From a virus: DNA of 64,000 nucleotides. The notes below the pieces were generated by a model. That model ran no database searches. It saw only the letters and a list, made by a program, of their open reading frames with translations, and had not been told where the DNA came from. The position numbers were made by a program, and so were the translations under genes. Location: IMG/VR virus record IMGVR_UViG_3300045988_065571. One strand, given 5' to 3'. Positions within the stretch are counted from its first letter, which is position 1. Every line of letters begins with the position of its first letter. Shown here in pieces: positions 7,787 to 63,895 of the stretch.

Positions 7787-9702
7787 TGGCAAATATAATA
7801 AGTAATCAAGCTTATGAAGCTATACAGGTACCAACAGAAGTTACTCCTGAAGTACAGGGTACCATTCTGTATGCTAATCAATTTAGTGGCATAGGTCAAG
7901 TTGGTATGCCAGATGATTTAGCTGAAGTACTTAATTCTAACTTAGGTACAATAGGTAATAATGTTCTAGTTCAACTAGAAGCTAAAATGGCTGCCTATGG
8001 TAATGGGCCTTGGTATGTGGATAGTAGAGATGGGGTAATTTACATACATAACCGTAAGTTTCAACAACCTCCTCATCATACCTACATATTCCAAGCTGAA
8101 AACGGAGAAGTATTAAGAGTATCTTTTACTACTCAAAGATCTACTAAGCAGAAGATGATGCAAGTGGGTAATACTATAAAACCTGAGGATAAGCAAATAC
8201 AAATCCAGGTAAGTTACATCGATGACCAACAGAATGAGATTCTACATGACCCACTACAGTTAGATGCCCTATCTACAGTAGATGTGCAAAGCCCAGGATT
8301 ATTTCATAGATCCCCCGAAGTTTTAAAACCCCATGTTGATAGTAAGGTAGAGAAATGGAAAGAAGATAGATTGAAATCCTTAGATGAAGAATTGGCTTCT
8401 AAAAAACAAGCTCAAAGACTAAAGACTGAATCTGCTAAGAAAGAATATGATGCTAAGGGTACTGGTTATTTAGATGCAGGTGGTGGATTAGAGTCTATGT
8501 CCGATACAGAATTAAGGGATGCTACTTCTCAAATGCTAGAGGAAGCTTATACTAAAGGAGAACTAACAAATATAAAATCTTCTATTGATGCACTAGTAGC
8601 GGGAGGAATGGACCTTACTTCTGCAATGAAACAAGTATACCAGGGTTTAAATTTTGTATTCAAAAATAAATACACTGAGGTATGGACTGAAGTCTGGGAA
8701 GATCCTCGTTCATATTCTTCTGGGGAATTAAAGTCTTCTAGTCGTGTGAACAGTATGACTGAACTGAATGCTGAGAAAAGGAAAACTCAGGAGGGATTAG
8801 CTAAAATGCAAGAAGACCCAAATATCATTGTCTACCCCTTAACTCTTCATGAAGAATCATATTATCCTCAAACTTATAACCCAGTCCAAGCTGGTAGAGG
8901 CCCTGGAGATAATCACGGATATTATCGAAGCAGAGTAAAGGTATTCAAAAAAGTAAAACAGCTTTTGAAGGTACCAGCTTGGAAAACTCTTACTAACTTA
9001 TATGATAGAACTGGAGGAGTAGGTAATAGAGAAAGAGCAATGAGGATAAATGCTAATGGAGGTTTAAAGGTAACCGAGAAAAAGCTAGTCTGTCAAATGC
9101 AAGTAGTAGGAAGACCTTCATTAAAAACTTCAATGGTACTTCAGCTTTTGAACGTTGGTAAAAGATGGTCAGGTTATTGGTATATAAAGAAATGTACTCA
9201 TAGGATGGATGCTGGTACTGGCTATATTACTGACTTAGAATTAGTTAGGAATAATGGAACCGCTGGCTTTCAAGTTGCTGCTGGTAATATTAATACTCAA
9301 GATGTAGTATCTAATAATGCCCGAAGTCAAGGAACTACTGATGTAGGTAAGAATAAAGCTGGAGATGCTCATTCTTCTGATTTTACCATAAATGCTACTA
9401 AGGCAGAATATGAAGCCTTCAAAGCCTTGGATGGTAATACCGAAGAACAAAGAAAGTTTGTTCAAGATATGGTTATCTATAGGGAACAGAATGCTAATAC
9501 TCCTACCAAAGGTAATGATGGCATCATAGAAGTAGAAAGAACTGTATACCAATCTACAGGTAAAGATGGAGAAGATGTAGTTACCATTACTAATGTTAAA
9601 CGTAAAAAGGTAGAAGCTACTAAGGATGTATATCGAAAGTATAATTTCAATATAGATTACATTATTAAACAGATGAACCAAGACTTTTCTAAAACTGAAT
9701 AA
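7786..9702 (+). CDS. baseplate hub protein (gpD / gp27-like) with long insertions
   Basis: The segment VVGRPSLKTSMVLQLLNVGKRWSGYWYIKKCTHRMDAGTGYITDLELV fits the gpD/late-control-D C-terminal pattern. A coiled, charged middle region is present. Confidence 0.5.
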   Translation: MANIISNQAYEAIQVPTEVTPEVQGTILYANQFSGIGQVGMPDDLAEVLNSNLGTIGNNVLVQLEAKMAAYGNGPWYVDSRDGVIYIHNRKFQQPPHHTYIFQAENGEVLRVSFTTQRSTKQKMMQVGNTIKPEDKQIQIQVSYIDDQQNEILHDPLQLDALSTVDVQSPGLFHRSPEVLKPHVDSKVEKWKEDRLKSLDEELASKKQAQRLKTESAKKEYDAKGTGYLDAGGGLESMSDTELRDATSQMLEEAYTKGELTNIKSSIDALVAGGMDLTSAMKQVYQGLNFVFKNKYTEVWTEVWEDPRSYSSGELKSSSRVNSMTELNAEKRKTQEGLAKMQEDPNIIVYPLTLHEESYYPQTYNPVQAGRGPGDNHGYYRSRVKVFKKVKQLLKVPAWKTLTNLYDRTGGVGNRERAMRINANGGLKVTEKKLVCQMQVVGRPSLKTSMVLQLLNVGKRWSGYWYIKKCTHRMDAGTGYITDLELVRNNGTAGFQVAAGNINTQDVVSNNARSQGTTDVGKNKAGDAHSSDFTINATKAEYEAFKALDGNTEEQRKFVQDMVIYREQNANTPTKGNDGIIEVERTVYQSTGKDGEDVVTITNVKRKKVEATKDVYRKYNFNIDYIIKQMNQDFSKTE

Positions 9703-9703
9703 T

Positions 9704-10420
9704 ATGGCTTATGAATCAGCAAAAACAATAACTGAACAGGGATTAGAATCCTTGGGAAGATACTATTCGGTGTACAGGGCTATGGTAGTTAATAACACAG
9801 ACCCTGATCATATGAATCGTATAAAGGTAGCTATACCAGAAGTAATGGGGGGAATAGTACTCTGGGCTTATTCAAAGGGTCAACATGGATCTACTGGGTC
9901 TGGCTTTAAAATGATGGCTCCTAAGAATGGTGATATAGTATATATTACCTTTGAATATGGAGATCCTAGTAAACCTCTGTGGGAATATCATGGTTGGGCT
10001 CAAAACCAAATACCCGATATCCTGGATGATCCTGATACTATGGGTATAGTTACACCTAATGGGAATAGAATCTGGTTAAATGATAAAGATGGATCACTCA
10101 AGATGTACTTATATGGGTCTGCTACTATTTACGCCGAAGGCCCAGTAAGTATAAATTCTAAAGCTCAAGCCTATGTGAATGCCTCAAAGGTTATAGTGAA
10201 CCAAGGTAATAATGATGGTATAATCAATATCAATGAATTAACCCAGAAACTAAACCAATTAGTTTCAGAGATAGAATCATTAAAAGCTCAATATAATTCT
10301 CATACCCACTCTGGTATTCAATCGGGACCTGCAGTTAGTGGACCTGTTATTACTCCAGTCACGAAACCATTTTCTACTTTTAATAAAACAGATTATGAGG
10401 ATTCTAAATTTGTACACTAA
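9704..10420 (+). CDS. baseplate central spike (gpV / gp5 / VgrG OB-fold type)
   Basis: N-terminal YRAMVVNNTDPDHMNRIKVAIPEVMGG...WAY motif typical of gpV/Vgr spikes. Position after the hub. Confidence 0.7.
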   Translation: MAYESAKTITEQGLESLGRYYSVYRAMVVNNTDPDHMNRIKVAIPEVMGGIVLWAYSKGQHGSTGSGFKMMAPKNGDIVYITFEYGDPSKPLWEYHGWAQNQIPDILDDPDTMGIVTPNGNRIWLNDKDGSLKMYLYGSATIYAEGPVSINSKAQAYVNASKVIVNQGNNDGIININELTQKLNQLVSEIESLKAQYNSHTHSGIQSGPAVSGPVITPVTKPFSTFNKTDYEDSKFVH

Positions 10421-10845
10421 TGGCAAATAACTTATACACTAATGTTATCGGTATTGGGCCTTTGTTTCCAATACGGATTACTGAGAATGAAAAGGGAGAG
10501 AAAGGTTGGTATCCCGTAAACGGAGATATTGAACTTGTTCATAATAACCTATCTGCTCTCCTTTGGTATGATATAGGTCAAAGATTCAGGCAAGAAGATT
10601 TTGGTACTAGGCTATGGGAATGTATAGAAGAACCTAATACTCAGGCTTTAGCTTTCTTGGTAAAGGATTTCTTAAAGAAAGCCATCTCTACCTATGAAAC
10701 TAGGATTACTTTTAAAAGTCTGAATATGAGGTTAGAGGGTACCAAACTTTTCATCGAAATGAATTATGTAATTAATCAAACTGGTAGCCAACAGGTATTG
10801 GGTATTAGTTATGATAGGTCTGAAAATATTTTAAAACCTTACTAA
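10420..10845 (+). CDS. baseplate wedge protein gp25/gpW-like
   Basis: 141 aa. GIGPLFPIR... start and overall gp25-like layout. Start overlaps the upstream stop (TAATG). Confidence 0.75.
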   Translation: MANNLYTNVIGIGPLFPIRITENEKGEKGWYPVNGDIELVHNNLSALLWYDIGQRFRQEDFGTRLWECIEEPNTQALAFLVKDFLKKAISTYETRITFKSLNMRLEGTKLFIEMNYVINQTGSQQVLGISYDRSENILKPY

Positions 10846-21289: not shown

Positions 21290-22107
21290 GAGACCCCTCT
21301 ATTCATATAACTAAGCATCAATTCGAAAAAATACTATCTCAGTTAGAGGTATATAATTTTCCGATTGATGCTTTCTTTGTTATTGCCCGTAAGGAAGCAA
21401 TAAATACTAGAGTTGTAGTTGTTACAAACAATAAGACAACTAAGAAAGTTTCTAACATTTTACTAGCATCCAAGGGAGATGCTGCTTTAGTTGCTGATAT
21501 TATATATGCAACTCGTATAAAACTAAAGCATAGAGGAGTTAGAAAAATAAGAGAAACAGAACCAAGAAATTGGGCGGTATGTAAAAAGATAGCTGAGCTC
21601 TGTAATCAATTCTGTGAAGATTTTCAATTGGATACCCGGGAAGGTTTTATTAAATATATCGAACTAGGTATCAAGAAGATGGACGGTAATTATAATAACC
21701 TCCTAAACAGATTATCTTCTATGTCAGAAAAGATTTCAGATTTATATTCTGCTACATTGGAAATGGAAGATGATTCTGGTAATGCTAAAGCTATCCATGA
21801 TTACTTCATAAAAAGGGTAGCAGATGTTACTGGTATATACGAATCATTTGTTAATCAACCAGATAAGTATATACACTTTGTAAGGCTAGATAAATTCTTA
21901 TCTGAGAAAGGGTGGGACCCAATTCAATTCATAGATGCTCAATTTGAATCCCTTGCTTGGTGTAATGGTTTACCTGAACCCAGTCAGATGTATAATGACA
22001 AGGCTATCGAAAGGTATAATAAATACCTATTTAAACATAAGAATCATTCACAATCAGAGGAACCTAAAGTAGAGGGAAGCCTCTGGTCAAAAATTAATAA
22101 ATTATGA
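21286..22107 (+). CDS. hypothetical protein
   Basis: 273-aa ORF, translationally coupled to both neighbours. Confidence 0.65.
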   Translation: MRDPSIHITKHQFEKILSQLEVYNFPIDAFFVIARKEAINTRVVVVTNNKTTKKVSNILLASKGDAALVADIIYATRIKLKHRGVRKIRETEPRNWAVCKKIAELCNQFCEDFQLDTREGFIKYIELGIKKMDGNYNNLLNRLSSMSEKISDLYSATLEMEDDSGNAKAIHDYFIKRVADVTGIYESFVNQPDKYIHFVRLDKFLSEKGWDPIQFIDAQFESLAWCNGLPEPSQMYNDKAIERYNKYLFKHKNHSQSEEPKVEGSLWSKINKL

Positions 22108-22721
22108 AAGCTTTTAAAAATCGTTTAGAGGAGATGGCAGAAGCCACTGTAAATGCTTTGGATTATTCCGATAGCAAAGTAGAATACCCCGATATTTCTA
22201 TAGTTCAGAAATGGCCTAAGGAAATAATCTTGCCCTTGTATGATTTATATAAAAATACTCGGTATTCAGAATTAACCTCAATCCTTATGTATACTCAGCA
22301 TCAGGCTAGATTTGGAGAAATAGGGGAATTGATGCTGGGTATCGGATTAGTAGAAATGGTACATTATGATAAACTGGGAGACTTCTTATTAAAGGCTTCC
22401 GATGTAATGGATACGGATATACCAGGAAATAATCAGTTAACTGTACATCCCCTAATAGATCTTGGTACTTCGGCAGAATCAGCTTTAAGATTATCCCTAC
22501 AAGCAGAAAAAGAAACTCTAGAGGAATATTATAAAGTATTTGATTCTCTGAATAAAGAAGAATATATAAAGAGAAGCGATTATATTCCAGTTACATATCT
22601 TATCCAGAAATTCATTGCTGATGAGGAATATCACATTACTCTTTTAAAGAAAGCTTTGAAAGAATACGAGGATTCCGATGATGAACCCAAGAAATGTAAA
22701 TCAGTAACAGTAATCATATGA
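22104..22721 (+). CDS. ferritin-like di-iron carboxylate protein (putative)
   Basis: Two ExxH motifs (VEMVHYD, DEEYHIT), each preceded by a helix with conserved Glu (SELTS.., LQAEKETLEEY). This is the four-helix-bundle E / ExxH / E / ExxH layout. Confidence 0.45.
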   Translation: MKAFKNRLEEMAEATVNALDYSDSKVEYPDISIVQKWPKEIILPLYDLYKNTRYSELTSILMYTQHQARFGEIGELMLGIGLVEMVHYDKLGDFLLKASDVMDTDIPGNNQLTVHPLIDLGTSAESALRLSLQAEKETLEEYYKVFDSLNKEEYIKRSDYIPVTYLIQKFIADEEYHITLLKKALKEYEDSDDEPKKCKSVTVII

Positions 22722-25036: not shown

Positions 25037-25230
25037 AAATGATATGGGCTATGTTCAAGGTATACCTTAACAACCCAAATTATTATGTGAAACAAGAGGA
25101 CATACTTGCTAATGTATGCGGCAATGGAAACAGGGATGTAAGGAAGATGATGAACTCTCTTGGTATTTACAAGGGAAATCCCTCAACATTAACTTATGGC
25201 CAACTTTTAAAACAATGTAATATAATATGA
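25024..25230 (+). CDS. hypothetical protein
   Basis: 68-aa ORF overlapping both neighbours by a few nt. Confidence 0.5.
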   Translation: MQKIEMIWAMFKVYLNNPNYYVKQEDILANVCGNGNRDVRKMMNSLGIYKGNPSTLTYGQLLKQCNII

Positions 25231-25781
25231 ACAAATTCAGATTTATCAAAGTAAGAGACGTAAAATCTCCCTCAAGAGGAAACGAAGGAGATGCAGGTTT
25301 AGATTTCTATATACCTGAAGACTTAACTCTACAGGATTTAGTAAAGGCTAATCCACAGTTAATATTTCATTGTGAAATACCTGAACCTGGTAAAGTAACA
25401 CTTGAATATAATTCAAATAACCAGGTACAAGTAATTTACATTTCTCCATTTACCAGAATACTTATCCCATCGGGTATCAAAGGTTTATTAGAACCAAGGT
25501 CTTCTATGCTGATGGCAGCAAACAAATCTGGTATATCAACTAAGAAAGGGCTTATCTATACTGCCGAGATAGTAGATTCTCCCTATACTGGAGAGATTCA
25601 TATCGGTATATATAATACTTCTCATGAGTTTCAAATAATAGAAGCTGGAACCAAGTTAGTACAGTTTATTCATGTACCTATATATCTTACAGAACCAGAA
25701 GAAGTAATCAAAGAAGAGTTTGATGGAGATGCTTCAACTTGGGGAACAAGAGGTAATAACGGATTCGGATCAACCAATTAA
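25227..25781 (+). CDS. dut: dUTPase (trimeric type; dCTPase activity not excluded)
   Basis: All five motifs: DAGLDFY, EPRSSM, AEIVDSPYTGEIHIGIYN, TKLVQFI, RGNNGFGSTN. Confidence 0.85.
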   Translation: MNKFRFIKVRDVKSPSRGNEGDAGLDFYIPEDLTLQDLVKANPQLIFHCEIPEPGKVTLEYNSNNQVQVIYISPFTRILIPSGIKGLLEPRSSMLMAANKSGISTKKGLIYTAEIVDSPYTGEIHIGIYNTSHEFQIIEAGTKLVQFIHVPIYLTEPEEVIKEEFDGDASTWGTRGNNGFGSTN

Positions 25782-25792
25782 TATCATAATAT

Positions 25793-26512
25793 ATGGCAAC
25801 TTTAGATGAACTAGCGAATAGGATATCGGTATTAGAGAATCGGTATTCAACTTTAAACAGTGTAGTGAACGGACATGCTACCGAGATACATAATCTTGAT
25901 ACTAGATTAGATACTGCAGAATCTAAACTAAATAATCATGAGGGACGGATTGAAACTCTAGAAGTTAAAGTAGAGGATCACGAAAGAAGATTGCAACTGA
26001 TAGAGAATTCTCATATAAAGTATACTGTATCAAGAAAGGTAAAATACCCCAAGAAAGCAGATCAAGGATTCTATCTATATCTCCCTGAAGATCTTACTAT
26101 TGATATTCTAATGGAATACAATAATGGAGTAATCAAACAGAAATGGAACTGGTTGAATAGAATCTTTAATCCTCAGGGATTCGGTAAAGTATCATTCGAC
26201 TTAGATAGAAACAGCGAAGGACATATTAAAACCATCGTTCTTGGTCAGAACACTAGGTTATTAATCCCAACTGGTATTCATATTGAAGAATTCACTCCAG
26301 TTAAATCTGTACTGAAAGCTGCAAATGAAGAAACTAATTCTATCAACAGTGGATTAGTATACGGTATAGAAGTACTTGGTCAAGTTCCAGGAGATGAAGT
26401 GGTGGTAAGTGTATTCAACCCAACTTCTGAGATTATTGGAATCGAAGCTGGAAGCGTATTGGTTCAAGTATTACATTTATTCTCTTATCATACAGTACCA
26501 GAAAAAGAATAA
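25793..26512 (+). CDS. dUTPase-fold paralog with N-terminal coiled coil, catalytic motifs degenerate
   Basis: About 70 aa of heptad-like repeats (LDELANRISVLENR...LEVKVEDHERRLQLIEN), then a dUTPase-like layout (QGFYLYLPEDL, LLIPTG, VYGIEVLGQVPGDEVVVSVFN, SVLVQVL). No RSS motif, motif III Asp/Tyr or motif V. Confidence 0.5.
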   Translation: MATLDELANRISVLENRYSTLNSVVNGHATEIHNLDTRLDTAESKLNNHEGRIETLEVKVEDHERRLQLIENSHIKYTVSRKVKYPKKADQGFYLYLPEDLTIDILMEYNNGVIKQKWNWLNRIFNPQGFGKVSFDLDRNSEGHIKTIVLGQNTRLLIPTGIHIEEFTPVKSVLKAANEETNSINSGLVYGIEVLGQVPGDEVVVSVFNPTSEIIGIEAGSVLVQVLHLFSYHTVPEKE

Positions 26513-26517
26513 TTACT

Positions 26518-27360
26518 ATGGATATTTCTAATCTGAAAGAAAAAGCCCCTGAAATCAAACAGGGGCTTGAACTTGAGAATATGTATGAGATTGGTTATCG
26601 CCAATTAGACTGTTATAAACCTTTGGAAAGGTTACCCGAATATCCCATGGATATTAACAGTACTAAAAACCAATCTCTTATGAAAACCCTTATATCTCAA
26701 GTAGTAGAGGAGTTAATGGAGGGTTATGAATCTACTTCTAATATAAATGATATTCTAGAAAACAAAGGATGGAATACCAATTTATATACTGATGTAGAAG
26801 AGATTCAGATAATCAACAATCTACAGAATGCTAATGAAGAACAAGCAGATGCAATAGGATTCTTCTTATCAGCTTTGATATATGCTAACATATTGCCAGA
26901 GGATATCTATAGTTGGGCAAACAAAGAACTTACTAAAGATCAAAAGGCAGTAGAAAACTTAGAGGATGTAATGGCATTCGGTATTCATATGATTTTAGAG
27001 ATGGATACTATTGATAGTATATTCAAAAACTTTAGGCTAATATCTGAAACAATCGAGGATAAAACTTCCGAGTATATAAAGGGATTCAAGGAAATGAGTC
27101 CAAATTTGCATACCGATGAGAAAAATATTTTGTTTCAGATAGTGTATGTTTTGAATCTTGCTAGAAATACTCTTAAGAATCGTACATGGAAACAGTCACC
27201 AGTAATAACTAAAGAACTAGAATTCCAGGATAGGCTGGTAGAGGCATTCTATTATTATATGGGATTCCTATCAATAATGGGATTTACTCCTACGGGTATC
27301 TATGAGCTGTATTTCAAAAAAGAGCGGTTGAATGAATGGAGAATCACTACACAATATTAA
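26518..27360 (+). CDS. all-alpha NTP pyrophosphohydrolase-like protein (MazG / dimeric dUTPase-like), tentative
   Basis: Helical protein with acidic motifs VVEELMEGYE and NANEEQADAIGFFLSAL. Located between the dUTPase and ThyA-like genes. Confidence 0.35.
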   Translation: MDISNLKEKAPEIKQGLELENMYEIGYRQLDCYKPLERLPEYPMDINSTKNQSLMKTLISQVVEELMEGYESTSNINDILENKGWNTNLYTDVEEIQIINNLQNANEEQADAIGFFLSALIYANILPEDIYSWANKELTKDQKAVENLEDVMAFGIHMILEMDTIDSIFKNFRLISETIEDKTSEYIKGFKEMSPNLHTDEKNILFQIVYVLNLARNTLKNRTWKQSPVITKELEFQDRLVEAFYYYMGFLSIMGFTPTGIYELYFKKERLNEWRITTQY

Positions 27361-27375
27361 TGAAAGGAGGTACTT

Positions 27376-28290
27376 GTGTCGGGTTGGAATAAAAAATTAA
27401 ACGGATTAGAGCTTAATACAGAAGAGCAAATCCATTCATTAGAATTTGCTACTTCACAAGAAGCATGGGAAAAGTTAAATGAAGGATTTTTAAGACTAGA
27501 ACCATCTTTATTTGCAAAAGGTGCTACCGCAAACAGTGGAGTAGCTGTGGTATATAACGTATTTATAAAAATACGTAAAGCTTGGGTAGACCCAGATTTT
27601 GATTATGGTAGATGTTTCAATTATAAAGAGACTAAGTGGACAAGCTTACTGAACAATTACATTGATTTCAATAAGCTTGATTTATTGCGTAGTAAGCTGA
27701 GAGTACTAAAAACCAAGTATAATCAGAATTACAACGTTACTTATATGTTTAATAATCATCACGATAACGGTAAACAATGTTTAATTGCTGCTACATTCTC
27801 CAAACGATTTGGGGAAGACATACCTGTTATTACAATGGTAATCAGGGCATCCGAGATAACAAAAAGATTAATCTTCGACTTCTTACTAATACAACGAATG
27901 GCGGAATATGTGTACGGACCAGAACAATCAGTACAAATCAATTTATTTGCCACTCAAATGTATGGGAATGTAGAAACACTTCTGATGTATCATACTCATA
28001 AACCTTTGAAGAAGGTATTAAAGGGAACTGATAAAGAGAATTCCTGGATAAAGAGGTTGAATGAGGTATTCGATAAATTTCAAAACGGTAAAGAGAAAGA
28101 TTTCTCTAGTTTTAAGGTATTCTTTAGAAGTTTTAAAGTGCTTCGACCAGATTTATATAGGGAAACATATAAATCTATGAAAGCAAAGGAATTACTTCTT
28201 GAATATGAAGATATCGAATATCCCGAGAATGTAATCTCTTACTCTCAACGTAAAGCATATAAGAAGAAACTTTTAAAACAGAAGAAATGA
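27376..28290 (+). CDS. possible ThyA-fold paralog (function unknown)
   Basis: GTG start 5 nt after AAGGAGG. The segment KQCLIAATF...VITMVIRASEITKRLIFDFLL loosely parallels the Cys...R-S-x-D core of the thymidylate synthase fold. Stop overlaps the next ATG. Confidence 0.3.
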   Translation: MSGWNKKLNGLELNTEEQIHSLEFATSQEAWEKLNEGFLRLEPSLFAKGATANSGVAVVYNVFIKIRKAWVDPDFDYGRCFNYKETKWTSLLNNYIDFNKLDLLRSKLRVLKTKYNQNYNVTYMFNNHHDNGKQCLIAATFSKRFGEDIPVITMVIRASEITKRLIFDFLLIQRMAEYVYGPEQSVQINLFATQMYGNVETLLMYHTHKPLKKVLKGTDKENSWIKRLNEVFDKFQNGKEKDFSSFKVFFRSFKVLRPDLYRETYKSMKAKELLLEYEDIEYPENVISYSQRKAYKKKLLKQKK

Positions 28291-29033
28291 GAATTTATAG
28301 CAGTAGTTATGAGTTAATGTCTGAAATGGGCAGAGAACTCAACAGTTATGGTCAAACTGTAAAACCAAAGACTTACCAGAATAAGAATATTGAAGGTAAT
28401 GAAGATTTTGTAACTAAAGAGATCATTTGCCAACAATATTGCTTAACTTCTTTGCAAGATCCAACGTGGTTATTCTTCTATTCAAGGTCTAGGGAATGGG
28501 CAGATGCTGAGTTCCAAGAAAGGATTAATACTTCTGAGGTAATTAACCCGGGCAAAGCTTGGGAATTAAGAAAAGACTTATGGGAACAGTTTTTGGTAGG
28601 TGGTAAATTTGATTACACCTATAATGAAAGAATTTACCATGTTATCAAAGACGTAATTAAATTACTTAGGGAGGATAATGATACTCGTAAAGCAGTACTC
28701 CCTATATTTAATGGAGACCAGGAATCTTTAGATACTTTCTGGTATGATGGAAGTAGACGTATTCCATGTTCTATGTACTATGATTTCCTTATCCGAGAGA
28801 ATAGTAAGGGAGAGAAGGTATTACACATTTGCTATCACCAAAGAAGTTCGGACTTTGTTACTCACTTTGGTAATGATGTATATCTTGCATGGAGACTAAT
28901 GGAACATGTAGCTAAAGAAGTAGGAGTAAAACCTGGTTATTTATATCACACCATAGATTCATTACATGCTTATCAAAAAGACTGGGATAAGTTATCCAGT
29001 TCTCTAAGAGTATTCGAGGATACTATCATATAA
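28287..29033 (+). CDS. thymidylate synthase-family enzyme, candidate pyrimidine (dCMP/dUMP) hydroxymethylase
   Basis: RRIPCSMYYDF (catalytic Cys), LHICYHQRSSDFVTHFGNDVY (RSxD core with N-D where ThyA has F-N), DSLHAY (ThyA: D.H.Y). Confidence 0.7.
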   Translation: MRIYSSSYELMSEMGRELNSYGQTVKPKTYQNKNIEGNEDFVTKEIICQQYCLTSLQDPTWLFFYSRSREWADAEFQERINTSEVINPGKAWELRKDLWEQFLVGGKFDYTYNERIYHVIKDVIKLLREDNDTRKAVLPIFNGDQESLDTFWYDGSRRIPCSMYYDFLIRENSKGEKVLHICYHQRSSDFVTHFGNDVYLAWRLMEHVAKEVGVKPGYLYHTIDSLHAYQKDWDKLSSSLRVFEDTII

Positions 29034-29104: not shown

Positions 29105-29145
29105 AAGGAAGTAGGTCTGGGAAGATATACTTCCTTATTTTATTT
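29105..29145 (+). terminator. intrinsic terminator upstream of DNA polymerase gene
   Basis: 9-bp stem AAGGAAGTA/TACTTCCTT, 14-nt loop, then ATTTTATTT. Confidence 0.6.
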
Positions 29146-29158
29146 AAAAACTTCTAGT

Positions 29159-31465
29159 ATGGAAACGAAATATAAGATTATAACCAATAAACAAGAGCTA
29201 AAGAAACTTATACAGTGTTGTAAGCAAACTGGTTATGCTTCTGTGGACTTTGAAACAAATGCAGAGCCAATATATAACAAATCTTTTAAACCAACTATAT
29301 TATCAGTAACTTTTCAACCGGGTTTTGGATGTTCTATACCTTTAGATCATTTCGAAACTGAAAAGTATACTTCTAAGGGATGGAATTGGAAAAAGATGCT
29401 TCGTAAATTTGGTGAAGAGGTAATTGAAAATCCAAATGTAGTTAAAGTTGCTTGGAACTACAAATTCGATGATCAGATATTTCAAAAGTATAATATCTAT
29501 TATCGAGGAGCATGTTTGGATGGTATGCTTGCTAAATATGTATTAAACGAAGAAAAACCTCATGATCTTAAGTCAATGGTAAGAAGGTATTTACCAGAAT
29601 ATGGGGATTATGAGAAGCAAGATAAATTCGATAAGATTCCCTGGGATAAAAAAGAATTAGAACCACTTTGTCATTATGGATGCCAAGATACAGATTATAC
29701 TCTTAGGTTAATGTTATTCTTTGAGAAAAAGTTAATTGATCTGGGTTTATACTCCGTATACCGTAACCTTTTCATGTGTAATTCTCGGGTACTTACTTCA
29801 GTAGAAAAAGAGGGTTTATATGTAGATGTTGATTTCAATAAGAAATTATTAGACGAATATCTACCAAAGATTGAGAATGCTAAAGATATCATATATAATC
29901 TTCCTAGAGTAAAGAAGTTTACTAAACAGTATAATCAATCCAAAATAGATAAGTATATTGCTAGCTTAGAAGAAGAGATAGAAAATTTGGACCCAGAAAT
30001 AGACAAAAGAAAAATACAATCTAGGGAACAAAAAATCTCTAATATTCGAGCAGGAATCTTTACTACAAAGAAAGAGAAGGATCTTATAAGGATGGTAAAC
30101 CTTGGTAGCTCAACTGATTTACCTCAATTGATGTATTCTGATATTGGTTTTAAATACCCGATCATTAAGTATACGGTTGATAGTAAAACAGGTAAAGAGA
30201 CTAATAAACCAAGTACGGATGAAGAAACTCTTATCAATCTGAGACTAAAGGTAAAAGACCCAGAATCACCTAAAGCAATATTCCTTGATCGTTTACTAGA
30301 ACTAAGAGGTTTAGAGAAAATGTATAAAACCTATATATTAGGCTGGTCAGAAAAGATTCAAGATGATAATAGGTTACATGGTAGATACAATATACATGGT
30401 ACTGATTCTAATCGTTTTAGTTCTGCAGACCCAAATATGCAACAAATACCTAAGACTTCAGTAGACCCCAATATAAAGAAACAACTACTAGCTCCTCCCG
30501 GATATTTATATATGGCTTTTGACTACTCTCAAGCAGAGTTAAGAATGATGGCTCATCTATCTGGAGATGAAACTTATCTTAAGGCTTTTAGAGATGGAGT
30601 AGACCCTCACTTATCTATTGCAGCGGCAAAATACCATGTATCAATTGAAGAAGCAAGTAAGGCTTATGATGATGAAAACCATCCAGATCATAAATTATGG
30701 AAGAACCGAAGGAAACAGGCTAAACAAATTGCATTCGGACTTATTTATGGTATTGGAGATGCTTTATTAGCAGTAAAACTATCCGATCCAAAAGCTGGTA
30801 TTATAGTTACAAAAGAAGAAGCACATAAAGAAATGGAAATCTTCTTTAAACAACATCCCAAAATCCTTAAATTTAAAGAAAAACAAGAGAGATTCCTTCG
30901 TAAGCATGGGTATTATATCCAATTATTTGGTACTAAAAGGAGATTACCACAAATATATTCTCATGATAGGCAAGAGGAGGCTTATGCTATTAGATTAGGT
31001 CTTAATTTCCCTTGTCAGGGAGCAGCTGCAAATATGACTAATTTTGGAGCTATTCTTGTTTATTGGTTAATGAGACAAGGTAAATTACCAATGATGAAAG
31101 AAGCCTGTACAGTACATGATGCAGTATATATGTATTCTAAACCAGAAGATATAAATACCTGGACTGTATATACCATTTGGAATATCCTACGTAACCCAAG
31201 TACTAAGAAATATTTTGGTTTTCAAGTTGATGACGTAGATATGGATATGGATTTTACAATTGGTAGGTCTATGGCAGAAGAATTACCATTTATTCCAGGA
31301 TACGATTATAATAAGATGCTTCAACCAGATTTTTCAGTAGAGGAATATATGGAAGAGCATAAGAAATATAAGCATATACACATCAAACAATTCAAAGAAA
31401 GGTTTAACAAACAAATAAAGAAGTATGAAGAAGATTTTAAACGGACCCACGGTATGGAGAGCTAA
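29159..31465 (+). CDS. family A DNA polymerase with 3'-5' exonuclease domain
   Basis: Exo motifs SVDFETN, WNYKFD, YGCQDTD. Pol motif A DYSQAELR, motif B RRKQAKQIAFGLIYG, motif C VHDAV. Confidence 0.9.
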   Translation: METKYKIITNKQELKKLIQCCKQTGYASVDFETNAEPIYNKSFKPTILSVTFQPGFGCSIPLDHFETEKYTSKGWNWKKMLRKFGEEVIENPNVVKVAWNYKFDDQIFQKYNIYYRGACLDGMLAKYVLNEEKPHDLKSMVRRYLPEYGDYEKQDKFDKIPWDKKELEPLCHYGCQDTDYTLRLMLFFEKKLIDLGLYSVYRNLFMCNSRVLTSVEKEGLYVDVDFNKKLLDEYLPKIENAKDIIYNLPRVKKFTKQYNQSKIDKYIASLEEEIENLDPEIDKRKIQSREQKISNIRAGIFTTKKEKDLIRMVNLGSSTDLPQLMYSDIGFKYPIIKYTVDSKTGKETNKPSTDEETLINLRLKVKDPESPKAIFLDRLLELRGLEKMYKTYILGWSEKIQDDNRLHGRYNIHGTDSNRFSSADPNMQQIPKTSVDPNIKKQLLAPPGYLYMAFDYSQAELRMMAHLSGDETYLKAFRDGVDPHLSIAAAKYHVSIEEASKAYDDENHPDHKLWKNRRKQAKQIAFGLIYGIGDALLAVKLSDPKAGIIVTKEEAHKEMEIFFKQHPKILKFKEKQERFLRKHGYYIQLFGTKRRLPQIYSHDRQEEAYAIRLGLNFPCQGAAANMTNFGAILVYWLMRQGKLPMMKEACTVHDAVYMYSKPEDINTWTVYTIWNILRNPSTKKYFGFQVDDVDMDMDFTIGRSMAEELPFIPGYDYNKMLQPDFSVEEYMEEHKKYKHIHIKQFKERFNKQIKKYEEDFKRTHGMES

Positions 31466-35027: not shown

Positions 35028-35898
35028 GAAAACGATATTACTAATAGATGGAGAGAATATACTTCACCAAAGTTTCCATAAGTTCGAAAAACTTAAGTCT
35101 ACCGATGGAAAACCAAGTGGAGCAATATTCGGATTTTTTAGATCATTACATGGGTTCTTACATAGGTGGGACCCAGATGAGGTTATTATAACTTTTGATA
35201 ATGGACACTCTCCTTATAGAGATGCTTTGTTACCAGATTATAAGGGACATAGGAAAAATATTTCAGTAGATTATGAATCTCTTCAATCTCAAAAACGTAT
35301 TATTATGGGTATGCTTAAGCTCCTAAGAATTAAATATGTTTTTGATAAGCATAATTCTACTAAATATGAAGGAGATGATTTCTTAGCATACCTAGTTTTA
35401 AATAAAAAACCCACTGAGAAGGTAATCATAATATCATCCGATAAGGACTTTAATCAACTTATCGGTAAAGACGTAAAAATAAACAATCCAAGAAAAGATG
35501 AGATGATTCATCAGGGTAATTGTAAGGAACTATTCGGATATTCTCCTGAAGAAACAGTAGATTACCTTTCAATGGTGGGGGATACTTCGGATGATATCAA
35601 AGGTATACCAGGTATTGGTCCTGTAAAAGCTAGGAAAATATTGGACGAATATGGTACTTTGGATAAATTTCTAGAGCATCATCATCAAACTTCTCATGTA
35701 GAGATTGCAGAAAGGAATAAGAAGCTTATAGATTTAAGATTATTTCAAAAAGAAGTACCATTATCCAAGTTACCTATGAAAAAGTTTGCTAATAAGGAGA
35801 TAAAATACAAGAAATTCAAAGAAGTCTGTATCGAATACTCTTTAGCATCCTTTATGACAAATGAATTTATGAAACCCTTTAAAGATTTGTTATCATGA
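35020..35898 (+). CDS. 5'-3' exonuclease / flap endonuclease (RNase H-like)
   Basis: LLIDGENILHQSFH (PIN-like N-terminus), SSDKDFNQL, H3TH motif GDTSDDIKGIPGIGPVKARKIL. ATG 35020 overlaps the recA-like stop by 8 nt. Confidence 0.85.
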   Translation: MSKKTILLIDGENILHQSFHKFEKLKSTDGKPSGAIFGFFRSLHGFLHRWDPDEVIITFDNGHSPYRDALLPDYKGHRKNISVDYESLQSQKRIIMGMLKLLRIKYVFDKHNSTKYEGDDFLAYLVLNKKPTEKVIIISSDKDFNQLIGKDVKINNPRKDEMIHQGNCKELFGYSPEETVDYLSMVGDTSDDIKGIPGIGPVKARKILDEYGTLDKFLEHHHQTSHVEIAERNKKLIDLRLFQKEVPLSKLPMKKFANKEIKYKKFKEVCIEYSLASFMTNEFMKPFKDLLS

Positions 35899-36473
35899 AA
35901 AGAATTATGTTTGTAGGACCTAGTGGAATAGGAAAAACCACTTTAGCAAAGTTTATAGAAGGTAAATATGGTATACCCTTTATTTCTGGTAGTATGACTG
36001 ACTTAATGCCAGATACAAAAGAGATGCACCATGCCGAGTTTTTACACCAAGAATGTGGAGAACTCATAAACAAGGATTATCAGCTGTTGAATCTGAGAAA
36101 TAAGCTTTTTAAGGATAAAGAATCATTTGTAACTGATCGTAGTTATGTAGATTTAGCAGCTTATTTCATATATAAACAATCTACTAATATCCCCGAATGT
36201 GAAGTAGATGCTTTCTTAGATATATGCAAAGATCTTACAGTTCAACAATGTGATTTATTAATATACCTTCCCTTGAGTATGTACAATATGAAAGAATGGC
36301 CAATGGAAGACAATAAGAAGAGAATCATAAATAGATATTATCAGGTTCAGATGTCAGATATAATGGGTAACCTGTTAACTCAGTGGAGTACTTTAAGTGT
36401 AATAGATATATTAGTAGTACCCCAATTAGATTTCTACGACAGAATACACATGATAATGTCAAGATTGGATTAA
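35895..36473 (+). CDS. P-loop deoxynucleotide (mono)phosphate kinase-like protein
   Basis: Walker A FVGPSGIGKTT, and DRSYVDLAAY resembling dNK/dNMP-kinase families. Confidence 0.55.
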   Translation: MKRIMFVGPSGIGKTTLAKFIEGKYGIPFISGSMTDLMPDTKEMHHAEFLHQECGELINKDYQLLNLRNKLFKDKESFVTDRSYVDLAAYFIYKQSTNIPECEVDAFLDICKDLTVQQCDLLIYLPLSMYNMKEWPMEDNKKRIINRYYQVQMSDIMGNLLTQWSTLSVIDILVVPQLDFYDRIHMIMSRLD

Positions 36474-62538: not shown

Positions 62539-62885
62539 AAATAATTTATAACAACCTAATACCTTTCAAAGGGTACAAAGCCATCAACCTTTTTGGGTTA
62601 GTATTTGTAAGAAAAGGGGCTAAATTTACCGAAGTAGATTATAACCATGAACACATCCATTCAAAGCAAATGGCCGAAATGTTAGGGATATTTTTCTACC
62701 TTTGGTACGGAATCGAGTATTTAATCATCCTTTGTTTTGCTAAATGGAACAAGCAGAATGAAAGATATCATGATGTAAGCTTTGAAGAAGAAGCCCATAA
62801 TAATGATTCGAATCTAAGCTATCTGGAAAACCGTAAGCCTTATGCTTGGTTCAAGTACATAAAATTGAGAAGTTACAAGAAATGA
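62535..62885 (+). CDS. small membrane protein with HExxH motif
   Basis: NHEHIHSKQ, then TM GIFFYLWYGIEYLIILCF. Translationally coupled to the endolysin (ATGA) and to the next gene (ATGA). Confidence 0.45.
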   Translation: MKIIYNNLIPFKGYKAINLFGLVFVRKGAKFTEVDYNHEHIHSKQMAEMLGIFFYLWYGIEYLIILCFAKWNKQNERYHDVSFEEEAHNNDSNLSYLENRKPYAWFKYIKLRSYKK

Positions 62886-63895
62886 AAGACTTAAAAGTAC
62901 TGGGAGTATGTGGAGGGCAAGGAGCCCTCCTATTCCCTTTTAAAGATAAACTTATTGGGAATATCGAACCCAGAGGAGTATTCCATACAAGTAGAGAAAG
63001 CCAGTGGAAAGCTAACTTTAAAGGTATACCTTTCTTAAAAGGGTATGAACTACCCGAAGATTGGCATCCAGATATCATATTATCTAGCCCTGATTGTGGT
63101 AGTTGCTCAGTAATGAGGTTATCTAAATCTAAAGCCCTTGGAGACCCTAAAAGTAATAAAAGTATACAACTAGTATTTCAAGCAATTCAATATTACGAAC
63201 CTGCTCTCTTTCTTATAGAAAACCTACCAAGATTGCTATCTCTCATTTCTAAAGAAATGTTAACGGACTTCTTTAAGAACTATAAACTTATTTTTCACGA
63301 AAGAAGCGTTTCTGACTTCGGAAACTCCCAAGTATCAAGAAAAAGATTAGTAATCGTTGGAGTTCATTTAGACAAGGGAAAAGAATATTTGGATTCTTTT
63401 AATGAAGTATTCCAAGTAAATACTCCAAAACTTACTAGAGATTTACTAGTACAAGCTCCACAGGAAGCTTTAATCCCATTCTCTGATAAAGTTTTAGCCA
63501 TGTATGATTATCGGAAATTACCTGAAAAGAAAAATCTTACGGTCAGACAAGTAAGACAACTTTGGACTCATGATTTCAAAGATGAAAAGAAATGGCCAAT
63601 CAAAACTGCTAAGATGAGTACTCTCCCGGGAGTATATCGATTAGAAGATGATAAACCACCCTTAACACTTAGACCTTCTGATAGGCAATTTAGACCAGAT
63701 GGGTATCCTTTGGGTATTTATGATTTCAAGGCAATTATGGGATTCCCTGAAAATTACCGAGTATTTATTCGGGGATTTGCAACTTGGGACCCTAAGACTT
63801 ATCACTACTGGTTAAATAAGGCTAGGTATACACTTGCTAAAGGGTCGGTATGTGAAATAGGATTATGGTTTAAGAAATGCCTTAATTTCAAGTGA
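62882..63895 (+). CDS. divergent DNA (cytosine-5) methyltransferase-like protein
   Basis: Motif I-like LGVCGGQGAL, motif IV-like SSPDCGSCS (DC rather than PC), motif VI FLIENLPRL, motif VIII SQVSRKRLVIVG. ATG 62882 (ATGA overlap) is preferred over TTG 62846. Confidence 0.5.
   Translation: MKDLKVLGVCGGQGALLFPFKDKLIGNIEPRGVFHTSRESQWKANFKGIPFLKGYELPEDWHPDIILSSPDCGSCSVMRLSKSKALGDPKSNKSIQLVFQAIQYYEPALFLIENLPRLLSLISKEMLTDFFKNYKLIFHERSVSDFGNSQVSRKRLVIVGVHLDKGKEYLDSFNEVFQVNTPKLTRDLLVQAPQEALIPFSDKVLAMYDYRKLPEKKNLTVRQVRQLWTHDFKDEKKWPIKTAKMSTLPGVYRLEDDKPPLTLRPSDRQFRPDGYPLGIYDFKAIMGFPENYRVFIRGFATWDPKTYHYWLNKARYTLAKGSVCEIGLWFKKCLNFK

Follow-up and report, generated by a model that had tools for sequence, protein, structure and literature searches.

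All five genes that an earlier note had described as lying back to back on one strand were found, at the same coordinates and all on the plus strand, in the window analysed here, a 64,000-nt stretch of phage DNA. Its source is an abundant, uncultured phage of the human gut. The gaps between ORF1 and ORF2, ORF2 and ORF3, and ORF3 and ORF4 are 11, 5 and 15 nt, and direct reading of the sequence confirmed that the last two genes, the ThyA-fold ORFs, share an ATGA stop/start overlap (28287..28290, + strand) coupling ORF4 to ORF5. ORF4 has a GTG start codon at 27376, with the Shine-Dalgarno sequence AAAGGAGG just ahead of it at 27363-27370 (the two together occupying 27363..27378, + strand).

ORF1 (25227..25781, + strand, 184 aa) is an ordinary housekeeping dUTPase that removes dUTP and supplies dUMP. 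Its description as a complete trimeric dUTPase was borne out by Pfam (dUTPase PF00692, 1.8e-13), PHROG 135 (dUTPase, 1.4e-24) and matches to 67 solved dUTPases in the PDB (3.8e-10 for the best, motifs 3-5 being aligned), and each of the five motifs can be read in the sequence, as DAGLD, PRSS, VDSPYTGE, KLVQ and RGNNGFGST; the match to NCBIfam dut (8.5e-17) falls under the equivalog cutoff. The gene is kept upstream of the module in gut-phage relatives. ORF2 (25793..26512, + strand, 239 aa) is a true paralog of ORF1, as had been noted (BLASTP, 34% identity across 167 aa, E 8e-22), with an N-terminal coiled coil of roughly 75 aa (residues 1-75) and a dUTPase-like barrel (residues 76-239), though its catalytic motifs are lost: D has become Y in motif 1, PRSS has become PVKS, the Asp/Tyr of motif 3 are gone and motif 5 is absent. 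Pfam returned only coiled-coil noise and a sub-threshold dUTPase match. ORF2 is full-length in related contigs L004-L031 and missing in L032-L083 and L090, and is, as judged from these contigs, an accessory gene limited to the sub-lineage of the window; it is a catalytically dead duplicate of ORF1, probably with a non-enzymatic role. Because ORF1 is ordinary housekeeping and ORF2 is catalytically degenerate and lineage-specific, the five-gene block stands as a set of genes, but its conserved functional core comprises three: the pyrophosphatase gene ORF3, ORF4 and ORF5.

We assigned ORF3 (26518..27360, + strand, 280 aa) to the all-alpha NTP pyrophosphatases of the dimeric-dUTPase/MazG/T4 gp56 superfamily, as first suggested, on the basis of Pfam dUTPase_2 (PF08761, 3e-5; 24.8 bits, above the cutoff of 22.9), PHROG 12184 (NTP pyrophosphohydrolase, 6e-17) and PHROG 173 (6e-7), and an AF2 model that is all-alpha with nine helices (pLDDT 91.5). 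Foldseek found no significant fold match for this model in the PDB. The protein carries acidic EExxE and EExxD motifs, which together with W224, K225, K268, N272, R275 and Y280 are common to ORF3 and T4 gp56, and in the relatives examined an ORF3-type gene always lies immediately upstream of the ORF4-like gene. We propose that ORF3 is a putative dCTP (and dUTP) pyrophosphatase that would feed dCMP to the ThyA-fold enzymes.

The second of these enzymes, ORF5 (28287..29033, + strand, 248 aa), is a ThyA-family protein (Pfam Thymidylat_synt PF00303, 1.3e-12; PHROG 160, 7.9e-28) with a cytosine-type active site. Its catalytic set consists of C161, R186, S187, D189, W99, Y112, H227 and Y229, K28 occupies the position of ThyA R21 as in T4 gp42, and all 14 key residues are invariant in 78 relatives. 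The ThyA C-terminal tail folds over the folate so that hydride can be transferred; this long segment is missing from ORF5 and its whole clade and is present in ThyA and the XP12 methylase. We rejected ORF5 as an ordinary ThyA on the absence of this tail and on scores far under the NCBIfam equivalog cutoffs (thymidylate synthase, 50.6 vs 174.55). In four independent alignments, D197 of ORF5 fell at the ThyA Asn177 position, aligned with N177 of E. coli ThyA, D179 of T4 gp42 and the Asp of XP12, MilA and AfhB, and N177D is the documented, experimentally established determinant of dCMP over dUMP use (PMC8670742; PMC13326640).

ORF4 (27376..28290, + strand, 304 aa) had no match in Pfam, NCBIfam or PDB sequences and belongs to PHROG 34294, annotated 'unknown'. 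Foldseek matched its AF2 model (pLDDT 92.4, pTM 0.89) exclusively to ThyA-family structures in the PDB, with the cytosine enzymes MilA (1.7e-5), HY126 AfhB (1.3e-4) and T4 dCMP hydroxymethylase (2e-4) on top, and again only to the ThyA family in BFVD, though at TM-scores of only 0.4-0.5 to ThyA-family structures. Because this confident model matches ThyA-family structures alone, the earlier ThyA-fold call for ORF4 was right even though profile searches find nothing, and by its predicted structure ORF4 represents an undescribed ThyA-fold family (139 clusters at 50% identity) that is invisible to standard profiles. A weak hhalign match (probability 8-13%) places C135, R157, E160, D168 and Y205 in register with ThyA C146, R166, D169, N177 and Y209, and the catalytic residues are invariant in 34 relatives.

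We propose that ORF4 acts as a second catalytic or partner subunit in a cytosine-modifying step. It is less likely, with perhaps a minor share of the probability, that ORF4 is a non-catalytic pseudo-enzyme, serving as a structural or regulatory subunit or as a nucleotide-binding scaffold for a dNTP-synthesis complex, and that an ORF5 homodimer does the chemistry. ORF4 has nothing corresponding to R126'/R127', the Arg pair of the partner subunit in ThyA, and no detectable ThyA sequence similarity, and the low TM-scores to real ThyA enzymes, the translational coupling (which suggests stoichiometric co-production with ORF5) and the two ORF4 paralogs per one ORF5 in some relatives would all fit a pseudo-enzyme. 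Invariance of C135, R157 and D168 across an alignment of 67 sequences down to 19% identity would, however, be unusual for a dead enzyme; E160 is nearly invariant in the same alignment, the distant homologs in Serbin and Strzyga retain the Cys, Arg, Glu and Asp, and within the block ORF4 shows the strongest conservation (about 90% identity in comparisons that give about 45% for ORF3).

From its active site, we propose that ORF5 may be a dCMP C5-hydroxymethylase-like enzyme, but it is not simply a gp42. Its product is uncertain because BLASTP places it nearer to hydroxylase-type enzymes (3e-16) and the XP12 methylase (3e-10) than to T4 gp42 (0.009). Known hydroxymethylases have Asp/Glu at position 143, whereas ORF5 has an Arg (R158 at the ThyA Leu143 position), but this position does not discriminate because the XP12 methylase has Asn there. 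The hydroxylase-type matches raise the possibility, which we consider unlikely, that one of the two proteins, ORF5 or ORF4, belongs with the flavin-dependent 5-hydroxy-dCMP synthases RB69 gp48, DLP3 gp80 and HY126 AfhB and that the DNA contains 5-hydroxycytosine. AfhB (9iqu/9iqc) is the best solved-structure sequence match of ORF5 (phmmer against PDB sequences, E 1.2e-9, with MilA at 2.4e-4) and ranks high among the structures matched by the ORF4 fold, ORF5 has short N- and C-termini like those of AfhB, and its nearest Straboviridae matches are D169N-type enzymes. The diagnostic D169N, found in all tested 5-hydroxy-dCMP synthases, is nevertheless absent, and we rejected this type for ORF5 on its retained Asp189 at that position; ORF4 has Glu160 there, and both residues are invariant in the close relatives checked. 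Position 143 is Arg in ORF5 and Gly in ORF4 rather than Glu, and the hydroxylase requires O2, whereas the hosts are probably strict gut anaerobes, C. perfringens certainly so.

Among 50,697 phage records, only 13 carried ORF4-like genes, and the 13 best matches to ORF5 come from the very same records. The order pyrophosphatase, ORF4-like (one or two copies), ORF5-like and PolA was repeated in gut-phage relatives and in C. perfringens phage P21, Serratia phage Serbin and Brevundimonas phage Strzyga, with ATGA coupling of the ORF4-like and ORF5-like genes also in Strzyga and a P-loop kinase inside the module run in P21 and Serbin. In MT121964, genes for an IspD cytidylyltransferase (1.4e-26) and a LicD transferase (8e-39) are inserted between the ORF5 homolog and PolA, an arrangement consistent with the decoration of a base that bears a hydroxyl. 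In previous work on metaviromes selected for modified cytosine, all-alpha NTP-PPase and dCMP deaminase domains were found together with ThyA homologs (PMC8670742). We found neither chemical nor sequencing-signal evidence that DNA is modified in the source phage or in any cultured module carrier, and EcoRI typing was applied to all Brevundimonas isolates, Strzyga among them, so Strzyga DNA is probably not heavily protected.

Downstream of the block lies a family-A DNA polymerase gene (PolA, 29159..31465, + strand, 768 aa), which is conserved next to the module in every relative (synteny in L001, L002, L090, L093, L098 and L228). The product of 35895..36473 (+ strand, 192 aa), previously called dNMP-kinase-like, is certainly a P-loop NTPase (Pfam AAA_28, 3e-8; P-loop-level matches only in NCBIfam), but its assignment as a (d)NMP kinase is weak (dNK, 1.7e-3, below cutoff; PHROG 2107 'thymidylate kinase', 1.6e-7), and it is unrelated to the module kinases of these other phages, showing no similarity to that of P21 and only P-loop similarity to that of Serbin. 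Outside the block, a C5-cytosine DNA methyltransferase-like ORF (62846..63895, + strand, 349 aa; Pfam PF00145, 3.1e-9) has GxG, P-D-C, ENL and QxxRxR motifs and is conserved in 192 related contigs. Complete replacement of cytosine is disfavoured because this conserved enzyme can act only on DNA cytosine whose C5 is free. The search for glycosyltransferase, LicD and IspD genes covered the window and, by way of a related contig, all but about 1.5 kb of the ~20 kb of genome beyond it. None was detected, in line with the first reading of the window, although many small ORFs have no assignment.

That no decorating enzyme was detected in the source phage lineage would suit a different product, in which ORF5 is an XP12-like dCMP methyltransferase, ORF4 an accessory or regulatory subunit and 5-methylcytosine is made at the nucleotide level. 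ORF5 shares the cytosine-type Asp with the XP12 enzyme, is closer to it by BLASTP than to T4 gp42 and, like it, is non-acidic at position 143, but we regard this product as rather improbable: the ORF5 clade has lost the C-terminal segment that XP12 keeps, the phage C5-methyltransferase would be redundant, and IspD/LicD in MT121964 suggest a hydroxyl acceptor. That same methyltransferase implies ordinary cytosine in the phage DNA, as would be expected if the block were nucleotide-pool housekeeping, with the dUTPase and NTP-PPase sanitising the pool, ORF5 (perhaps with ORF4) giving dTMP and canonical virion DNA. A dUTPase together with ThyA is common in phages, and ORF5 homologs are annotated 'thymidylate synthase' in public records. 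We nevertheless find housekeeping improbable: both ThyA-fold proteins have Asp where ThyA has Asn177, ORF5 lacks the folate-closing segment and falls far short of the NCBIfam cutoffs, and this gene combination is associated with modified cytosine in metaviromes. The supply of dTMP needs neither a conserved second ThyA-fold partner nor a second pyrophosphatase besides the dUTPase; the earlier argument that two ThyA-fold genes exceed this need was upheld, and neither resembles an ordinary thymidylate synthase.

On balance, we lean towards a T4-like pre-replicative pathway in which the ORF3-ORF4-ORF5 core, with its undescribed ThyA-fold partner, leads to dCTP modified at C5, most probably with a 5-hydroxymethyl group. 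The core genes would be transcribed just upstream of the polymerase gene. ORF3 would hydrolyse dCTP, and probably dUTP, to the monophosphate, depleting canonical dCTP and supplying dCMP, whose C6 would be attacked by Cys161 of ORF5 for addition of a one-carbon group at C5. The active-site features are present in ORF5, and a 5-hydroxymethyl product is suggested because the folate-type Asp169 is kept, the C-terminal tail is absent and enzymes of the hydroxyl-decorating type adjoin the homolog in a close relative, MT121964. ORF4, which has the fold, a nucleophilic Cys, a phosphate-binding Arg and a cytosine-type Asp, may be catalytic too, with dCMP or the product of ORF5 as its substrate, or may pair with ORF5 as the other subunit of a heterodimer. 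A nucleotide kinase, which may be the 35895-36473 P-loop protein or come from the host, would then act with the NDP kinase of the host to yield the triphosphate for incorporation by the phage PolA. The likeness to the T4 gp56/gp42/gp1 recipe and the surplus of ThyA-folds seen in the earlier note are supported, with a three-gene core and a weak kinase, but its SPO1-type 5-hmU option is disfavoured because ORF4 and ORF5 both carry Asp at the ThyA Asn177 position. The phage PolA would need to accept a modified dNTP, and ORF4 is an undescribed enzyme-like protein that accompanies the putative modification block in phages of very different bacteria.

The five ORFs of the block all lie on the plus strand where the earlier note had placed them, at 25227..25781 (ORF1), 25793..26512 (ORF2), 26518..27360 (ORF3), 27376..28290 (ORF4), and 28287..29033 (ORF5), with gaps of 11, 5, and 15 nt and, as read in the sequence, the claimed ATGA overlap of ORF4 and ORF5 at 28287-28290. 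ORF4 starts with GTG at 27376, with the Shine-Dalgarno sequence AAAGGAGG five bases before it, and a terminator-like hairpin (29119-29135) lies 3' of ORF5, shortly ahead of the gene for a family-A DNA polymerase (PolA, 768 aa; 29159..31465, +). The window has ~33% G+C and its transcription is nearly all on one strand. A megablast search of 8 kb of the block region against 50,697 GenBank phage records returned zero matches, which leaves the phage without a sequenced close relative in that set. The nearest protein clusters of each block gene have thousands of members, drawn from human-gut assemblies and carried on contigs of ~85-88 kb, and this cluster size and origin mark it as an abundant uncultured gut phage, the hosts of which are likely anaerobic. 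Related contigs in MAG bins (L090, L092, and L093) were assigned to Romboutsia, Clostridium, and Dysosmobacter, in contrast with the host hint given by a BACON domain (2.8e-12) in a tail-fibre-region protein of a relative (L200, 4160-6247, a part of the genome outside the window), as this domain is typical of Bacteroidota-associated glycan binding. A 205-aa ORF (22104-22721, +), flanked by the primase/HNH region and the helicase, has a borderline ferritin-like match (4.7e-5, just under the Pfam cutoff).

Though all five ORFs are real, the conserved core is narrower than the five-gene block described in the earlier note, consisting of an all-alpha NTP pyrophosphatase of the ORF3 type (PPase) and two coupled ThyA-fold proteins next to PolA. 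ORF4-like genes were detected in 13 of the 50,697 phage records (ten C. perfringens phages and three phages from gut viromes), the very records that give the 13 best ORF5 matches. In the gut relatives, the helicase and dUTPase genes are followed by the PPase, one or two ORF4-like genes, an ORF5-like gene, and PolA, and C. perfringens phage P21 has the run P-loop kinase, PPase, ORF4-like gene, and ORF5-like gene; on short contigs, the PPase precedes even ORF4 relatives of 24-27% identity. In Brevundimonas phage Strzyga, the "hypothetical protein" encoded between an NTP pyrophosphohydrolase and a ThyA-like gene belongs, as a remote member, to the ORF4 family (hhalign 91%, E 9e-7), and its gene overlaps the ThyA-like gene in ATGA, with PolA following. 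Serratia phage Serbin (L228, 1494-7372) has the order kinase, PF08761 dUTPase, ORF4-like gene (hhalign 95%, E 4e-8), ThyA-like gene, cytidine deaminase, and PolA. Serbin is a 9g-like phage without the queuosine (deazaguanine) cluster of that group (PMC6509536), which suggests that one DNA-modification cassette was swapped for another. The block is also strongly mosaic across the window's sub-lineage and its sister lineage (L004-L083), with ORF4 at ~90% identity where ORF3 is at ~45% and ORF1 at ~60%, a contrast that is partly built in because the loci were chosen by ORF4 similarity (at least 90% identity). The module is a conserved, mobile unit. Among the block genes, ORF5 varies most within the lineage of the window itself (82-93% identity), with the changes limited to residues 81-160 and the C-terminus. 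PolA reaches ~1,100 aa in some relatives (L002, 10895-14173; L090, 9734-13054) vs 768 aa in the window, and on visual inspection the inserted segment resembles an intein or a homing-endonuclease element.

Of the two genes at the head of the block, ORF1 is a trimeric dUTPase with all five motifs, among them motif 3 with its Asp/Tyr and motif 5 with RGxxGFGS, just as had been read from the sequence, and it matched Pfam (1.8e-13), PHROG (1.4e-24), and 67 solved dUTPases. ORF2 is a true duplicate of ORF1 (34% identity, E 8e-22), again as proposed, in which other residues stand at the catalytic positions of motifs 1-3, motif 5 has been lost, and the N-terminus has gained a coiled coil of ~75 residues; it may be trimeric and, rather than an enzyme, a protein that binds nucleotides or has a regulatory role. 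Since ORF2 is confined to the window's sub-lineage (L004-L031), with no copy in L090 or in the sister lineage (L032-L083), it stands outside the conserved machinery.

The first gene of the conserved core, ORF3, belongs by family profile and acidic motifs to the all-alpha NTP pyrophosphatase superfamily of dimeric dUTPases, MazG, and T4 gp56, in agreement with the earlier reading. Its Pfam match to the dimeric-type dUTPases (PF08761) is above threshold (3e-5, 24.8 bits vs a cutoff of 22.9), and it matched the PHROG NTP pyrophosphohydrolases (PHROG 12184, 6e-17), and carries acidic EExxE/EExxD motifs (E64, E65, and E68 with E107, E108, and D111) that are conserved in 40 homologs. Similarity to gp56 by BLASTP covers a C-terminal stretch only (E 0.001), and in the alignment W224, K225, K268, N272, R275, and Y280 are invariant and common to the ORF3 homologs and gp56. 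The AF2 model of ORF3 is all-helical (pLDDT 91.5), and a Foldseek search of it against the PDB gave no match with E below 0.3.

ORF5 is a member of the ThyA family (Pfam PF00303, 1.3e-12), which bears out its earlier assignment to the ThyA fold. In alignments with E. coli ThyA (the sequence of which was checked against the PDB), T4 gp42, the phage XP12 enzyme, and others, its nucleophile C161 corresponds to ThyA C146, the R186, S187, and D189 of its R186-S-S-D189 motif to R166, S167, and D169, and W99, Y112, and H227/Y229 to W80, Y94, and H207/Y209, while K28 takes the place of ThyA R21, where gp42 also has Lys. All 14 key residues are invariant across 78 relatives, and the considerable variation among the relatives is limited to residues 81-160 and the C-terminus. 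ORF5 is not a canonical thymidylate synthase by family score (best NCBIfam match 50.6 bits vs a cutoff of 174.55). The C-terminal segment of ThyA, which closes over the folate, is also absent, with 19 residues beyond the H-x-Y motif vs 55 in E. coli ThyA. Moreover, ORF5 has Asp197 at the position of ThyA Asn177, and N177D is the change established as shifting the substrate from dUMP to dCMP (PMC8670742; PMC13326640). As ORF4 likewise has Asp at this position, the SPO1-type 5-hmU scheme, one of the two offered in the earlier note, was rejected: the target base would be cytosine, not uracil.

Which group is added to cytosine depends on further comparison with dCMP-type enzymes. At positions 143, 169, and 177 (E. 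coli ThyA numbering), the residues are Leu, Asp, and Asn in E. coli ThyA; Asn, Asp, and Asp in the XP12 5-methyl-dCMP synthase; Asp, Asp, and Asp in T4 gp42, which makes 5-hydroxymethyl-dCMP; Glu, Asn, and Asp in the 5-hydroxy type (AfhB and two Straboviridae homologs); and Arg, Asp, and Asp in the ORF5 clade. The C-terminal tail is long in E. coli ThyA and XP12 and absent from gp42 and the ORF5 clade. D169N is diagnostic of flavin-dependent 5-hydroxy-dCMP synthases, having been found in all tested enzymes, and an acidic residue at position 143 is typical of hydroxymethylases (PMC13326640). ORF5 retains Asp169 as Asp189, where the Kanagawavirus and Klebsiella-phage homologs aligned alongside it have Asn, and has Arg158 at position 143. 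We dropped position 143 as a discriminator of methyl from hydroxymethyl chemistry because the XP12 methylase has Asn there, so the Arg of ORF5 is an imperfect argument against a gp42-type enzyme. The absence of the folate-closing tail together with the retained Asp169 favours non-reductive, folate-dependent chemistry, i.e. hydroxymethylation.

Overall similarity does not settle the product type, with BLASTP of ORF5 giving 3e-17 against the Strzyga ThyA-like enzyme, 3e-16 against a hydroxylase-type enzyme, 3e-10 against XP12, and a marginal 0.009 against gp42. ORF5 nevertheless shares with gp42 the ThyA fold, the Cys, Asp169 and Asp177 (both invariant in the 78 relatives), the Lys at the Arg21 position, and the absent tail, unlike gp42 having Arg rather than Asp at position 143. 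The XP12 deoxycytidylate methyltransferase is likewise a ThyA homolog with Asp177, Asp169, and a non-acidic residue at position 143, and its product is simple and undecorated; it differs in keeping the long C-terminal segment, which the whole ORF5 clade lacks, in adjoining dCMP deaminase and DHFR genes, and in having no ORF4-like partner. Among solved structures, ORF5 has its best sequence match (1.2e-9) in the 5-hydroxy-dCMP synthases (RB69 gp48, DLP3 gp80, and HY126 AfhB; PDB 9iqu/9iqc; PMC13326640), which also rank among the top ORF4 fold matches and are short ThyA-fold proteins with Asp177 in a pathway with a dCTPase and a dNMP kinase. Unlike these synthases, neither ORF5 (Asp) nor ORF4 (Glu) has the diagnostic D169N, and neither has Glu at position 143; arabinosyl or glycosyl transferases are absent here, and the hosts are likely anaerobic. 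From sequence, then, the most likely product of ORF5-type chemistry would be 5-hydroxymethyl-dCMP, with a methyl, hydroxyl, or novel substituent still conceivable.

The other half of the coupled pair, ORF4, had no match in Pfam or NCBIfam and none among PDB sequences by phmmer or with a 67-sequence profile, its only profile match being PHROG 34294, of unknown function; its ThyA fold is therefore visible through structure prediction only. Its family forms 139 clusters at 50% identity, in which Y83, K87, L91, Y95, C135, R157, and D168 are invariant and N35, W88, N94, F125, K133, L136, E160, R164, L171, R174, and R251 nearly so, and the longer members carry no informative fusion domains. The AF2 model (pLDDT 92.4, pTM 0.89) gave significant Foldseek matches in the PDB exclusively to the ThyA family, albeit with TM-scores of just 0.4-0.5: MilA came first (1.7e-5), then HY126 AfhB (1.3e-4) and T4 dCMP hydroxymethylase (2e-4 to 6e-4), with ordinary thymidylate synthases ranking below. 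In a viral structure library, family members were followed by a Pseudomonas phage PMBT14 protein and then by ThyA and gp42 proteins. An hhalign comparison with a ThyA/gp42/ORF5 alignment was weak (probability 8-13%), yet it placed the catalytic core in register (ORF4/ThyA: C135/C146, R157-A-S-E160/R166-S-x-D169, D168/N177, and Y205/Y209), and the strands and helices around these residues in the model match the element order of the ThyA topology. We thus agree with the earlier note that ORF4 has a ThyA fold. It is not a canonical ThyA, with Asp168 at the Asn177 position, and it has Gly132 at position 143 by direct sequence reading, in place of the acidic residue of gp42-type enzymes, and Glu160 rather than the Asn of flavin-dependent 5-hydroxy-dCMP synthases at position 169. 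In ThyA dimers, the R126'/R127' pair is donated by the partner subunit, and no counterpart of this pair was seen in ORF4.

MilA, the CMP 5-hydroxymethylase of mildiomycin biosynthesis (PDB 5jnh/5b6d), also matches ORF5 in sequence (2.4e-4) and is a cytosine-specific ThyA-fold hydroxymethylase with Asp177; it differs in acting on a ribonucleotide, CMP, in bacterial secondary metabolism and as a single enzyme with no paired paralog, and its TM-score with ORF4 is ~0.4. A parallel in gene content comes from MetaGPA, which tied a ThyA homolog, an all-alpha NTP-PPase, and a dCMP deaminase, with or without a 5hmC carbamoyltransferase, to modified-cytosine contigs (PMC8670742). The window likewise combines an Asp177 ThyA-fold protein with an all-alpha pyrophosphatase, and Serbin has a deaminase. 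In contrast to that network, no carbamoyltransferase is present here, and a paired ThyA partner of the ORF4 type is mentioned neither in PMC8670742 nor in PMC13326640.

The T4 5hmC pathway (gp56 dCTPase/dUTPase, gp42 dCMP hydroxymethylase, and gp1 dNMP kinase), the model put forward in the earlier note, resembles the block in its all-alpha PPase with the gp56 C-terminal motifs and in its pre-replicative logic, as the block genes adjoin replication genes. Unlike the block, T4 has no counterpart of ORF4, and unlike T4, the window has no glucosyltransferase, its candidate kinase is not gp1-like, and it also encodes a C5-DNA methyltransferase. The dNMP kinase proposed at 35895-36473 has a clear P-loop, but its kinase identity is weak: a Pfam dNK match of 1.7e-3 is below the cutoff, PHROG "thymidylate kinase" matched at 1.6e-7, and NCBIfam matches span the first ~30 residues only. 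Beyond the P-loop, it is not homologous to the kinases that P21 and Serbin carry inside the module, and we found no support for it as the kinase of the module. The methyltransferase-like ORF (62846-63895, +) matches the C5-cytosine family (Pfam PF00145, 3e-9) with the motifs GxG, P-D-C, ENL, and QxxRxR and is kept in 192 related viral contigs at 67-98% identity. Complete substitution at C5 would leave this enzyme without a substrate, a conflict unless replacement is partial or its activity differs.

As the earlier note had stated, no glycosyltransferase-like domain was detected among the larger ORFs of the window, where many small ORFs at 39-62 kb are without assignment. None was found either in most of the ~20 kb beyond it, which encodes packaging and structural functions (read from contig IMGVR_UViG_3300045988_023843; ~1.5 kb not covered). 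A 63%-identical relative, MT121964 (L002), has two genes inserted between its ORF5 homolog and PolA (9154-10774), one for an IspD-type cytidylyltransferase (1.4e-26) and the other for a LicD-family transferase (8e-39). Homologs of neither occur in the window. The two genes would fit transfer of a phospho-alcohol onto a hydroxyl-bearing cytosine, though they may have another purpose; if true, phospho-alcohol decoration of hydroxylated cytosine would be a so far undescribed DNA modification. In the literature searched, neither nucleoside analyses nor modification data were found for any phage with the module, be it from C. perfringens, Serratia, or Brevundimonas.

Together, these results partly support the interpretation of the earlier note and add a new element, the ORF4 family, which has a ThyA fold, keeps the residues for covalent catalysis, and is in every case coupled to the distinct Arg143/Asp169/Asp177 ThyA clade. 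A bolder reading, which we regard as rather unlikely, is that ORF4 represents an undescribed catalytic ThyA-fold clade and the obligate coupled partner of the ORF5 clade, the pair producing an uncatalogued cytosine derivative. ORF4 could then pair with ORF5 as a heterodimer and receive the missing Arg pair from it, or ORF4 could re-activate 5-hydroxymethyl-dCMP by Cys addition and exchange the hydroxyl for another group. If this were true, an uncatalogued base would be present both in a highly abundant phage lineage of the human gut and in cultured phages of C. perfringens, Serratia, and Brevundimonas, and in some relatives it would be further decorated by IspD/LicD-type phospho-alcohol transfer.

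The ThyA fold is known for methylation, hydroxymethylation, and, since 2025-26, flavin-dependent hydroxylation, and a strongly conserved, profile-invisible partner of the ORF4 type would extend this repertoire. The module also occurs in easily grown phages, namely C. perfringens phages CPD4 and P21, Serratia phage Serbin, and Brevundimonas phage Strzyga. If it replaces cytosine, one of the phage lineages most frequently assembled from human-gut metagenomes would have modified DNA, which would bear on its recovery by restriction-, ligation-, or nanopore-based virome methods, on which host defences the phage evades, and on its engineering.
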